From: Octopus vulgaris
Lineage: Eukaryota
Direction: 5' to 3'
Assembly: GCA_951406725.2 (NCBI GenBank)
Contig: OX597833.1
Span: forward strand, 57,908,001 to 57,972,000
DNA: 64,000 nucleotides
The position numbers were made by a program, and so were the translations under genes. The notes under the pieces were generated by a model. It was not told where the DNA came from, searched no databases, and saw only the letters and a program-made list of their open reading frames with translations. This document shows positions 7,242-61,676 of the stretch, one piece after another. Numbering within the stretch: position 1 is the stretch's first letter; each line of letters starts with the position of its first letter.

Positions 7242-8734
7242 TTATAATTCACTCTCGTGAAGTATATTTTGGAACGCTTTGTCATTGGCAAGGTCTTCTA
7301 CTGAGTGAATGAATTCCAAAACAAATTTTTTGTATTCAGTATTTCCATTTCCATACTCATATAAATCAAGTATTATTTCCTTTATCTCCCAAATTTCTAT
7401 CAGGTCTTTGTTGAAAGGAAGACATTCTACAGCAGATTTAAGAGCCAGAACAAACCTATCCATTCCTGTTCGTCTTAATTGATCTTTTTCTTCTTCATCA
7501 TTTTTTCCATCTGCTTCTTTAATACATAATCTTCCAAACAAAATGTTAAAATTAACATCTTGCATTTTGATATCTTTCACTATACTTTTAAATCTTTCAC
7601 AATACTTCCTGGCATTGTCATATTCTTTCAAAGACATATATAATAAAATGATATCATAGAGAGCAGCGGAACTTTCATGACAAAGTTCAAGAGATTGTTC
7701 AAAGTGATATCCAGCTTTGTTGATTAACTCATTCCTTTCTCTGGGAGGAATACTTTGAGCATGTTTTAAAACTTTCGCAAATACATTCGTTTCTGTTGAG
7801 AATTGTTTGTTCACTGGGACATATGTATATGTTGGTGTATCCATTCTTAGATAAAGTGATCCAAGCCGATGATGAGAATATGATGTTGCTTTTATTTCAA
7901 TTGCTTTTTCAAACAATTCTCTTCCTTGTTCAAGCTGATTTGAACGTATATAATGATAGGCACTTTTCTCCAAAACATAGCGGTCATCAGGGGAAATATG
8001 AAGAGCTCTCTGAAAATACTCTTCAGCTGGTTGACTACGAAAATTATGAGGACTAATTTTAAACAAACCTATGAATGCTAATGTTCTTCCCATTAGGGCC
8101 TTGTCAATATGGTGTGGAAAAGCACATTGTATTTTCTCTAAGTACTGTATTGATTCCTTAATATTTTCACGCATTTTCTCTTTATCCAAGGTCTTTCTTA
8201 AACAACGATATTGCAACAAAGCAATAGAAAACATACACAGATAATCGTCTGGACAAACGTTGAGAGACTCTTTGTAAAGTTCGACAGCTCTTTCATGATC
8301 TTTAAAAGATATAGTAGCTAAACAATAAGCAACATTTCTTTTGCCTTCTGCTTCTATCAGCGAGAAATTTTCTCTTTCTTCAAGCTTGCTTAGATTATCC
8401 AAAAGGTTTCTTACCTCAGGGATATTTCCATTGTACAAATGTGAATGAATGCCAGGTTGGTTAATGCCACCAGGTTATCTGGCTTCTTTTCTCGAACTTC
8501 ATTGGCTAATTTTTCAGCTGAAAATTTATCGTTCATCTGCCACAGAATATATACTAGGACGTTCTTTTGACGAATCTCATCTTCTAAACCAAATAAGATA
8601 TCATCATTCAACGAATTTTCTACTTTTTTGTAGAGAGACGACCAAACTTATTTGGTTTTCTCAAAATTTTCTTCCATTACATTTGGAAATCTTTTAATTC
8701 TCTCCCTATACGATTCTCTTCTACTTCCTTCATC
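7242..8734 (-). pseudogene. IFIT-like TPR gene copy 1, exon 2, pseudogene
   Basis: TAA replaces the Asp codon at 8650-8648 (K*VW versus KDVW). There is a 2-nt insertion at ~8441-8443 and a 9-nt in-frame insertion (KSIVKDIK versus KVDNK). No exon 1 is present in unit 1. Confidence 0.9.
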
Positions 8735-9123
8735 CTGAAATAAAAACAAAATGATTGCGTATGAAATATGATATCACACATTGTCATTGACAAAAAGATA
8801 TTCTCCAATTTTCGATTTTTAGTTAATGAAACAATGTTAAACCATCCTAGTGTGATACGGTTGATGTAGTGGCTGAGCATTTTGGATTCGAATGTTCGAT
8901 GTTTTGAATATACGCACAGAAAACTGAGCGTAAATAAGTGAGAGATCAATGTAAGAGGTGTGATTAACAGAGTGATAAATTCATCATCATCATCATCATC
9001 ATCATCATCATCAACAACAACAACAACAAGAACAATAACATGATGGACAGGCTGTTGCAGATCACTTATATTATGTAATATAATATGATATAACACTCTC
9101 TCACACACACATACACACACGCG

Positions 9124-58500: not shown

Positions 58501-60194
58501 GTGTTTCTGCCTGTCTCTGTCTCTCTTGTTTACTCTTGGGGGTTCGCGGTCATTGTGAATTCTTGGCAAAGAAGAAGAAGAAGAAGAAGAAGAAGAAGAA
58601 GAAGAAGAAGAAGAAGAAGAAGAAGAAGAAGAAGAAGAAGAAGGAGGAGGAGGAGGAGGAAATAATGTGGGAGTGCTATGATAGTAGTAGGATGTTAAAT
58701 GGCGTTGTGCCCAGTAAGTGGATTGTTGTGGATGGTAGTTGTGATTGAATCCTTGTGATATCTCTTTTGAATGTATTGTTTATAATATTTTCGTAGGTGT
58801 TATTCTAAACAGCAGTAGTAGTAAAGTAAGGAAGGAGGTGGCGGAGAGGAACAAGAAGAAGAAAGAGACAGAATAATAAGAGAATGCAGGTTGTTAGGAT
58901 AGTAGTAGGATGTTAAAATTGTCAAGTGATCACTTTTAGGTCACTTGACCATTCAACATCCTACTACTATCATAGCACTCCCGCATTATTTTCCTCTTTA
59001 AGTTAAAACGTTTTAATAAATAACTAATGTGGTTTGGTTAGTGGAATGTTTACATGTTTTTATGGGAAGTGCAGGGAAGTAACGAGGGTCTGATGATAAG
59101 TTTATATGTATTTTCTCTGTGATGTTTATTACATCGATTTCTTTTATGCCCCTTTAACTGAAAGTTACAACACTTCCACGTATGGCTACCCTGTTGAAAG
59201 ACTTTGCTGCCTCAGTTGTTTGCTTGTGTCCCAGAAAAGAGGCAAACAATTTACAAGGGCCAAATATGCCATTCAGTTCTTTAGTGCTTTCATAATAAAA
59301 TAGTATTAAAGTTTATCATCAAGACCTGTCACCGATGTTAAGTTACATCTGATGTAGAACCACCACAACAGCAGTAACTCTTAGATAGGACATTGCCAAA
59401 ATACAGACACATGAAATGATCTGCACACTAATGAACACGAACTAATATAGTCTGCAAAGGAAACTAAAACTATTCATCTCTCTCTCTCTCTCTCTCTCTC
59501 TCTCTCTCTCTCTCTCTCTCTCTCTCTCTCTCTCTCTCTCTCTCTCTCTCTCTCTCTCTCCACATTGCCATTTAAATTGAGGAAAACTTTTTAAATATTT
59601 TGGAATTTCTGGCTTCATGTTTCCTGATAGTAAAATGTCGTCCTAACTTAGGTTATCGATCTTCAATGATTTACTTGGTGTCTTTTGTTTAAATTAGTAA
59701 TTTTTGATTGTTACTTATAGAATTCCAATATTCCAACGATGTTTCAGTATAATGCAAAAGTTTCCAGTTTTACATCATCCCAATATGTAGTCACGATTAT
59801 CAAATGGAACTTTCAAGCAAAAGTATATCTCTAGATTCATTCTAATATTTTCTGCCACTTCTTCACTGTTTGGGGATGTTAAAATATGTCAAAATGAAAG
59901 TTAGTTATGACGTCATCCTTTGAATGCTCTGACGTCATTTCAACGTTGGTTTCAGGGCCACATCCATAACAAAGGCAGTAATATTTCCTGTAGAATTCTT
60001 TGCTACATTCAGCTTGTGTTTCAAAGAAAGGAGTAGTCTAAATTTATATGATTTTAAAAATTTAACAGTAGATAAACGTGTTTGGTATTACTTCAGAAAA
60101 CGTGAGATATATAACAATGAATTTCAAAATATTGTTGAATATTATCAATAAAGAAAGGAATAAGGAAAGTATATTTATGAACACAATCTATCTT

Positions 60195-61676
60195 TTATAA
60201 TTCACTCTTGTGAAGTATATTTTGGAACGCTTTGTCATTGGCAAGGTCTTCTACTGAGTGAATGAATTCCAAAACAAATTTTTTGTATTCAGTATTTCCA
60301 TTTCCATACTCATATAAATCAAGTATTATTTCCTTTATCTCCCAAATTTCTATCAGGTCTTTGTTGAAAGGAAGAAATTCTACAGCAGATTTAAGAGCCA
60401 GAACAAACCTATCCATTCCAGAACGTCTTAATTGATCTTTTTCTTCTTCATCATTTTTTCCATCTGCTTCTTTAAAACATAATCTTCCAAACAAAATGTT
60501 AAAATTAACATCTTGCATTTTGTTATCTGCTTTAAATCTTTCACAATACTTCCTGGCATTGTCATATTCTTTCAAAGAGATATATAATAAAATGATATCA
60601 AAGAGAGTAACTGAACATTCATGAGAAAGTTCAAGAGCTTGTTGAAAGTGATATTCAGCTTTGTTGATTAACTCATTCCTTTCTCTATGAGGAATACTTC
60701 GAACATGTTTTAAAACTTTCGCAAATACATTCGTTTCTTTTGAGAATTGTTTGTTCACTGGGACATATGTATATGTTGGTGTATCCATTCTCAGATAAAG
60801 TAGTCCAAGCCGATGATGAGAATATGATGTTGCTTTTATTTCAATTGCTTTTTCAAGCAATTTTCTTCCTTGTTCAAGCTGATTTGAACATATATAATGA
60901 TAGGCACTTTTCTCCAAAACATAGCGGTCATCAGGGGAAATATGAAGAGCTCTCTGAAAATACACTTCACATGGTTGACTGCGAAGAAGACAAGGACTAT
61001 GATTAAACAAACCTATCAATGCTAATGTTCTACCCATTAGGGCCTTATCAATATGGTGTGGAAAAGCACATCGTATTTTCTCTAAGTACTGTATTGATTC
61101 CTTAATATTTTCACGCATTTTCTCTTTATCCAAGGTCTTTCTTAAACAACGATATTGCAACAAAGCAATAGAAAACATACACAGATAATCGTCTGGACAA
61201 ACGTTGAGAGACTCTTTGTAAAGTTCGACAGCTCTTTCATGATCTTCAAAAGATATAGTAGCCAAACAATAAGCAACATTTCTTTTGCCTTCTGCTTCTA
61301 TCAGCGAGAAATTTTCTCTTTCTTCAAGATTACTTATTTTATCCAAAAGGTTTCTTACCTCAGAGATATTTCCATCATACAAATGAATGAATGCAAGGTT
61401 GGTTAATGCCACCAGGTTATCTGGCTTCTTTTCTCGAACTTCATTGGCTAATTTTTCAGCTGAAAATTTATCGTTCATCTGCCACAGAATATATACTAGG
61501 ACGTTCTTTTGACGAATCTCATCTTCTAAACCAAATGAGATATCATTACTTAACGAATTTTCTACTTTTTTAGAGAGAGATGACCAAACGTCTTTGGTTT
61601 TCTCAAAACTTTCTTCCATTACATTTGGAAATCTTTTAATTCTCTCCCTATACGATTCTCTTCTACTTCCTTCATC
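60195..61676 (-). CDS. IFIT-like TPR protein, copy 4, exon 2 (493 aa, intact; exon 1 expected beyond the window)
   Basis: Open 1482-nt frame after a TTTATTTCAG acceptor. Paralog of copy 2. Confidence 0.9.
   Translation of the reverse strand, partial: [493 protein letters not shown]

Follow-up and report, generated by a model that had tools for sequence, protein, structure and literature searches.

The stretch of DNA analysed here (the window) comprises 64,000 nucleotides (nt) of the Octopus vulgaris genome (NCBI GenBank assembly GCA_951406725.2, contig OX597833.1; C20:57,908,001-57,972,000 in the notation used below). It has a GC content of 35.5%, is rich in microsatellites, contains no tRNA genes and carries one gene in four minus-strand copies (A, B, C and D; Table 1). 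The gene encodes a TPR protein with the predicted fold of the vertebrate IFIT proteins, and behind each copy lies the decayed remnant of a TIR-coding tail. An initial annotation had described the locus as a tandem cluster of four IFIT-like, all-TPR paralogs of about 510 amino acids (aa) in an octopus-like genome. Statements taken from the cited papers refer to the portions of their text available to us.

Gene copies, array and transcripts

Copies B and D, which are 95% identical, keep an open frame of 1,479 bp, and the spliced product of copy B is 510 aa long, the length that had been proposed. Because of insertions in A (2 nt) and C (1 nt), only two of the four window frames are open; all four announced copies are present on the minus strand, but as genes with an open frame only B and D stand. 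The protein blocks cited in the annotation were found in the translations. Units B, C and D form a tandem segmental duplication, and copy A sits 20 kb further along, with extra insertions and without the coding part of exon 1.

A search of the genome returned 30 match rows, every one on C20; they correspond to at least 22 family loci, and the array extends past both ends of the window. Short copies number 14 on C20 (7 open frames, 7 broken), ten of them in the array at C20:57.85-58.01 Mb; the eight long copies lie at 8.8 and 73.3-73.5 Mb. The 14 close homologs are all Octopus proteins or the window's own, most of them named IFIT1B-like or IFIT5-like by NCBI automatic annotation, which bears out the octopus-like genome. 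The array of ten short copies and the paralog tree likewise agree with the earlier view of a tandem, independently expanding locus.

Spliced contigs were found in three of four public runs (X1, X4 and X6), which come from three studies. They depart from the genome exactly at the acceptor and then read into exon 1, which shows that the gene is transcribed and spliced; the RNA nature of these runs is itself inferred from the splice junction, as no run is recorded as RNA, and the contigs, whose depth was unused, reveal neither which copy is expressed nor at what level. In run X11 no splice junction occurred among the loose ends listed. One contig of run X1 spans exon 2 plus the downstream tail of copy B, and this tail therefore reads as 3' untranslated region (UTR). 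Two coding exons are confirmed, with an exon 1 length and an intron phase unlike those of the IFIT description in PMC3688568.

Resemblance to IFIT proteins

The best PDB sequence match of copy D was IFIT5 (E 1.2e-5), and the other two of its three matches were generic TPR proteins at E 0.011 and 0.045. Judged by sequence, the IFIT resemblance is greater than chance. A profile (A1) of 73 relatives, with no known vertebrate protein among its rows, matched IFIT1 (E 2e-35) and IFIT5 (E 1e-31) starting at the N-terminus, and both outranked every other natural protein; an engineered consensus TPR stood above them because of repeat summing. Comparison of profile A1 with fish IFIT by hhalign gave 99.5% across 343 columns. 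When fish IFIT was used as a query against the genome, all 12 matches fell in the octopus family, in a search biased to single-exon genes and with TTC22 absent from the competition.

The AlphaFold model of copy D has a predicted local distance difference test score (pLDDT) of 92. The top 12 Foldseek rows listed for it were all IFIT1 or IFIT5 (template modelling (TM) scores 0.56-0.62; OGT 0.29), and the VIA structure comparison gave Z 24-27 for IFIT1/IFIT5 over 407-430 residues, the best non-IFIT structure reaching Z 20.3. In this predicted model the IFIT-specific TPR fold extends over the whole chain, N-terminal subdomain included. Vertebrate IFITs are thus the best hits in the PDB, profile and genome searches, and the proposed IFIT homology is upheld by their agreement with the predicted fold and its whole-length match to IFIT1/IFIT5.

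Decayed TIR tails and the TPR-TIR family

The window proteins have no intact TIR domain, since the stop codon precedes the linker in all four copies. Directly 3' of this stop codon, each copy carries a remnant of a TIR tail (E 1e-30 to 1e-33), and so do nine of the ten other short copies; L009 showed no tail match. The remnant shares 67-73% DNA identity with the long-paralog tail and has 9-10 short indels, nearly all frameshifting, within its 620 bp. Descent from a TIR-bearing ancestor is indicated both by these decayed tails and by the nesting of the short copies in trees (see below). The window protein can accordingly be called all-TPR for its fold, but not for its origin.

Long paralogs are 736-741 aa in O. 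bimaculoides and O. sinensis, with about 230 extra residues. The model of long paralog L013 matches IFIT1 over residues 8-283 (Z 21.1) and, over residues 589-724, the TIR domain of TRIF (Z 15.0, root mean square deviation 3.2, 132 aligned residues) as well as those of IL-18Rb, SARM1 and MyD88 (Z 14-15). Positions 625-742 of profile A1 match the TIR domain of a TLR (E 1.8e-8). Pfam detected TIR in none of three octopus tails even at E 10, and fold or profile searches were needed; in amphioxus and sea urchin members Pfam TIR_2 lies above its cutoff. An Atlas search with the tail returned TIR-named clusters at 0.89-0.90, which we take as a lead only. The catalytic-Glu column holds E in 22 of 78 tails, in a gappy part of the alignment.

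The tail is common to 78 of 161 relatives, all 78 of them among the 107 relatives longer than 600 aa. Fourteen of the 76 non-octopus tail-bearing relatives are named (gastropods, bivalves, sea urchin, hemichordate and amphioxus), and the others are taken to be invertebrate. At least two family genes are present in lamprey, their tails matching the profile at E 1e-6 to 1e-3. An amphioxus member used against the octopus genome, in a stricter first look, found only the known C20 loci. Two further forms may be recorded. In Batillaria P0016 (1941 aa), two or more family units apparently follow one another in tandem; a TIR-like segment occupies 620-757, and the best match to copy D is at 873-1275. 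The lamprey-cluster and related proteins P0112, P0096 and P0315 have a long Arg/Gly-rich insertion after the helix equivalent to that of H289, possibly an extra RNA-binding region.

An intact TPR-TIR fusion is encoded by four octopus loci. Three more long loci, L017 and L018 (C20:8.79-8.82 Mb) and L015 (C20:73.52 Mb), are broken before the TIR by single-base indels; in two of the three the indel hits the same base, where the TPR domain ends. The TIR frame downstream of the 1-nt indel is still open in all three. These are possibly fresh, independent TIR losses, and unless they are assembly errors, such cuts mean that TIR loss recurs.

Phylogeny

For the larger tree, 37 of 170 rows were removed for coverage below 75%; the focused trees were built from 28 hand-picked rows and 358 columns, and all trees were unrooted and outgroup-free. 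The short clade, including an O. bimaculoides member, is nested among TIR-bearing octopus paralogs (support 100/98-100/99), and the loss of the TIR is therefore derived and older than the split from O. bimaculoides. Vertebrate IFITs group with a sea urchin TPR-TIR protein (92/92, both branches long), and octopus adjoins this pair at only 65/87; a clade of octopus with the other molluscs was not rejected in the approximately unbiased test (p-AU 0.235). Lamprey members group with amphioxus and hemichordate members (99/96). These sequences suggest an early split of the family into several lineages, with the octopus array best read as a TIR-less offshoot parallel to the jawed-vertebrate IFITs, not as a shown ortholog of them.

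Two other histories were rejected: lamprey members as direct orthologs of jawed-vertebrate IFITs (p-AU 0.0002), and horizontal transfer or contamination from a vertebrate, the latter because orthologs occur in three octopus species and the short copies nest among octopus TIR-bearing paralogs. The Lytechinus TPR-TIR proteins P0078/P0282, the TIR-bearing neighbour closest to vertebrate IFITs in the trees, combine a CHFTW-like motif at the N-terminus with a canonical TIR that includes the Glu-bearing motif, but are without the basic groove residues.

The RNA groove and selection

The RNA-contact roles of IFIT1/IFIT5 residues were taken from PMC3950709 and PMC13197388, and copy D and the family were mapped onto them by hand counting in alignment A2. 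Five basic sites were considered (IFIT1/IFIT5 numbering: K151/K150, R187/R186, R255/R253, K259/K257 and R262/R260). In human IFIT1 the charge reversals K259E and R262E abolish cap0 binding, and in IFIT5 K150 is essential (PMC3950709). Among 76 TIR-bearing relatives, a basic residue stands at the equivalent of K151 in 66, R187 in 74, K259 in 54 and R262 in 66, an aromatic one at W147 in 71 and His at H289 in 65. Just three Arg columns are at least 70% conserved, namely the equivalents of K151, R187 and R262, all of them IFIT RNA contacts.

Long paralogs L013/L014 retain four of the five basic sites and L016/L019 two. The window copies retain only one (R187); they also keep the equivalents of Y252 and H289. 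An Arg equivalent to R263 is found in A, B and C, and A and D have Arg in place of Q290. With four of the five basic contacts missing, binding of 5'-triphosphate (5'-ppp) or cap0 ends in the manner of IFITs is doubtful for the window copies.

At their pocket sites the seven open short copies carry 12 extra alleles, where 4.8 would be expected (p 0.004, post hoc). In residues 211-300 there are 50 replacement and 6 silent variants, a per-site ratio of replacement to silent variation (pN/pS) of 2.35. The ratio of nonsynonymous to synonymous substitution rates (dN/dS) of short copies against long paralogs is 0.48-0.55, and between clades 0.3-0.55.

Upstream region and regulation

Short copies have an IRF-element-like site about 410 bp 5' of the ATG, and the first such site of copy B is aligned with a triple GAAA array upstream of a long paralog. 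The spliced contigs reach 555-641 nt 5' of the junction, beyond the site. Palindromes resembling gamma-activated sequences upstream of short copies were not significant (p 0.06-0.36). Molluscs possess the pathways that lie upstream of interferon but no obvious type I interferon (PMC6723221), and octopus hemocytes express an IRF2-like transcript (PMC4199593, supplement). Among the rows listed in that hemocyte supplement, the names IFIT and TTC22 are absent. Searched for induction of the family, an oyster poly(I:C) supplement (PMC7064767) gave one unrelated-looking TPR row and a mussel supplement (PMC7773633) two KDM6A rows only.

Sequences like the upstream region recur elsewhere. L036 (C8:113,854,092-113,854,712) is a 93% identical upstream region plus exon 1 with no exon 2 match there, and C20:61.636-61.662 Mb (L038, L043-L048) holds partial tandem copies of the upstream region with the IRF-like site.

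Neighbouring elements

Both retroelement-like sets of open reading frames (ORFs) listed without a Pfam match in Table 1 are what we take to be Penelope-like elements. The ORF pair on the plus strand adjoins the site at which coding exon 1 of copy A is lost, and L042 shows the same shortened upstream region for copy L006 as for copy A.

Table 1. Gene parts, remnants and mobile elements of the window (numbered from its first letter; LINE, long interspersed nuclear element)
Feature	Position	Strand	Remarks
Copy A exon 2	7242..8734	-	frameshift, 2-nt insertion near 8440; probable pseudogene
Copy B exon 2	27700..29181	-	open frame
Copy C exon 2	43950..45432	-	frameshift, 1-nt insertion near 44730
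Copy D exon 2	60195..61676	-	open frame, 493 aa + stop
Copy B coding exon 1	34094..34144	-	17 codons; phase-0 intron of 4.9 kb
Copy C coding exon 1	50336..50386	-	17 codons, GT donor
Copy D exon 1	L022:2674-2724		just beyond the window edge
Copy A upstream/5' UTR region	15897..16819	-	alignment with copy B ends 73 bp before the ATG
Copy B upstream region	34540..34700	-	IRF-element-like sites 34556, 34683 and ETS-like site; weak evidence
Copy A decayed linker+TIR remnant	6676..7159	-	
Copy B decayed linker+TIR remnant	27055..27611	-	
Copy C decayed linker+TIR remnant	43305..43861	-	
Copy D decayed linker+TIR remnant	59550..60106	-	
Tandem segmental duplication, units B/C/D	26088..63641	.	period ~16.25 kb; 98.4% identity across 21.4 kb
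Broken retroelement-like ORF set	14264-15955	+	reverse-transcriptase-type motifs; no Pfam match
Broken retroelement-like ORF set	20674-22042	-	reverse-transcriptase-type motifs; no Pfam match
LINE-type endonuclease + reverse transcriptase, 856 aa	17224-19791	-	Pfam RVT_1, Exo_endo_phos_2; unit A only
LINE-type reverse transcriptase	37600-39294 and 53833-55526	+	RVT_1; duplicated with the 16-kb unit; second copy frameshifted
DDE_3 transposase relic (Tc1/mariner type)	~9300-10440, 30327-30794, 46000-46950, 62260-63200		in the intron of each copy
Degenerate interstitial telomere-type hexamer repeats	35497-35573, 47981-48011, 51745-51821		in the duplicated unit

Discussion

On balance, and with moderate confidence, we favour the view that the array is specific to octopus, turns over fast and consists of IFIT homologs derived from an older IFIT-like TPR-TIR protein that lost its C-terminal TIR, the long proteins being RNA receptors and the short ones binders. 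What is observed is the IFIT fold, spliced two-exon genes, TIRs in the paralogs, decayed tails, the nesting in trees, and the birth and death of copies. In the proposed mechanism the long proteins would be receptors in the cytosol that bind foreign single-stranded RNA in an IFIT-type basic groove, and their TIR, mostly without the conserved catalytic Glu, would signal by assembly with other TIRs. The short window proteins would be incapable of signalling and would act as inducible binders, either effectors that sequester the ligand or decoys that damp the long receptors. Their groove appears remodelled and diversifying, and for that reason they probably no longer take a plain 5'-ppp or cap0 end as ligand. 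Jawed-vertebrate IFITs would be a separate TIR-less branch of the same family.

Several observations weigh against this explanation. The deep nodes of the trees are weakly supported. On the fish-IFIT profile the bit scores overlap (best generic TPR 70, octopus 38-66, lamprey 16), and alignment A2, used for the model of copy D and for residue mapping, includes one IFIT-like row (P0064) and one lamprey-cluster row. The R255 position is unconserved across the whole family, and in place of K151, R255, K259 and R262 the window copies carry Thr, Glu, Tyr and Ile/Leu. The pocket test was post hoc and uncorrected for surface exposure or gene conversion, and its p value rises to 0.047 with other species added. 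Among the short copies dN/dS is about 1 (0.68-1.53), which relaxed constraint fits as well as diversification does, and half of these copies are broken. Within 60 kb of nearby DNA there are 12 occurrences of the IRF-like motif, often in repeats, so that one match per kb is not rare; since the motif is common in local repeats and the transcripts extend past the site, the signal is weak. Finally, TTC22 clusters score 0.96-0.97 in the Atlas feature search, level with IFIT, at ranks 7 and 15 of 30.

The state of the groove also bears on whether the window proteins are working equivalents of IFIT1/IFIT5, able to bind viral RNA with 5'-ppp or cap0 ends and to stop its translation. The predicted whole-length IFIT fold, the tandem array of two-exon genes without TIR as in IFITs, and the retained equivalents of R187, Y252 and H289 speak for such a function, and Arg at the R263 and Q290 positions might compensate for what was lost; yet four of the five basic contacts are gone from the window copies, and the substitutions K259E/R262E suffice to kill cap0 binding by IFIT1, and IFIT5 needs K150 (PMC3950709). 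We consider this equivalence unlikely. Mere decay, that is, drift after TIR loss with passive copying in repeat-rich segmental duplications, would account for the dN/dS near 1, the 7 broken copies among 14, the lost groove residues and the retroelements that fill the units. It sits poorly with the open frame that three species (O. vulgaris, O. sinensis and O. bimaculoides) have kept as the tail gained its 9-10 short indels, with spliced transcripts, and with the dN/dS of 0.48-0.55 against the long paralogs, and we regard it as improbable for most of the short array.

The family might instead be TTC22-like, or a general protein-binding TPR scaffold, its IFIT match reflecting shared ancestry or TPR similarity and no RNA sensing. 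A resemblance to TTC22 had already been remarked on in the initial annotation, and the Atlas score, on which the comparison is based, does tie TTC22 clusters with IFIT; moreover, no TTC22 structure was among the PDB matches to compete with IFIT, and generic TPRs equal the octopus scores on the fish-IFIT profile. The N-terminal motifs of the octopus and TPR-TIR family presumably resemble those of TTC22 as well. No TTC22-named protein was returned by the protein searches for relatives, and TTC22 could yet be a closer vertebrate relative than IFIT. A mere scaffold, however, would not explain that the conserved arginines of the family fall exactly on IFIT RNA contacts, nor the TIR fusion and lineage-specific expansion, which are immune-type features, and we give this alternative little credence.

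Returning to the favoured origin by TIR loss, the octopus copies share with jawed-vertebrate IFIT1/IFIT5 (PDB 5w5i, 6c6k, 4hor, 3zgq) the fold and helix order over the whole length, a collinear profile match from the N-terminus, a tiny first coding exon followed by one large exon, and tandem clusters with gene birth and loss (for IFITs, PMC3688568, PMC4887208). They differ in their low identity (14-20%), in an N-terminal motif of FPxxF type where IFITs have CHFTW, in an exon 1 of 17 codons with a phase-0 intron where that of IFITs is ATG plus 2 nt (PMC3688568), in the absence of four of the five basic RNA contacts, in their derivation from a TIR fusion, and in a host without known type I interferon (PMC6723221). 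The TPR plus TIR architecture is known in molluscs from the oyster TIR-TPR proteins, a class defined in a figure legend of PMC4346834, where the word IFIT is absent from the main text, and abbreviated in the Aplysia immunome (PMC9334734); unlike that class, the window copies have lost the TIR. The long-paralog TIR has the fold of TRIF, MyD88, SARM1 and oyster TIR-STING (Z 14-15), and differs from them in being attached to an IFIT-like domain and in its Glu column.

In the available text of PMC3688568, a family-wide survey, the origin of IFIT is put in jawed vertebrates together with interferon, and candidates from lamprey, amphioxus and acorn worm are dismissed. It was the only paper found with 'IFIT-like' and 'invertebrate', and it argues for that jawed-vertebrate origin. 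Our literature search, which did not cover subscription journals, returned neither a link between IFIT and TIR nor invertebrate IFIT homologs. The IFIT-like label thus exists already in automatic annotation, and the origin from TPR-TIR fusions looks unreported. TPR-TIR proteins may already figure, under TIR or TTC22 headings, in a survey of invertebrate TIR-domain families and in protein-family databases.

Most plausibly, an old family of cytosolic TPR-TIR receptors that probably recognise foreign RNA has shed its TIR repeatedly. The TPR-TIR relatives in invertebrates and lamprey suggest that IFITs began as sensor-signalling receptors predating interferon. More tentatively, and short of calling it likely, we propose that IFITs descend from bilaterian-wide, TIR-wired cytosolic RNA receptors retained by molluscs, ambulacrarians, amphioxus and lamprey, that octopus and jawed vertebrates lost the TIR independently and multiplied the remaining binder in tandem arrays, and that the octopus groove is now diversifying in an arms race with pathogens. 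If molluscs, deuterostome invertebrates and lamprey do share a TIR-fused IFIT-like family, the fold would go back to the bilaterian ancestor, and molluscs would have a class of candidate RNA sensors for their interferon-like response. Octopus offers a natural experiment, with an intact receptor, fresh truncations and an old truncated array that keeps a fossil TIR in its transcript, all on one chromosome, and the question of TPR-TIR proteins as RNA receptors is directly open to RNA-binding and reporter assays.

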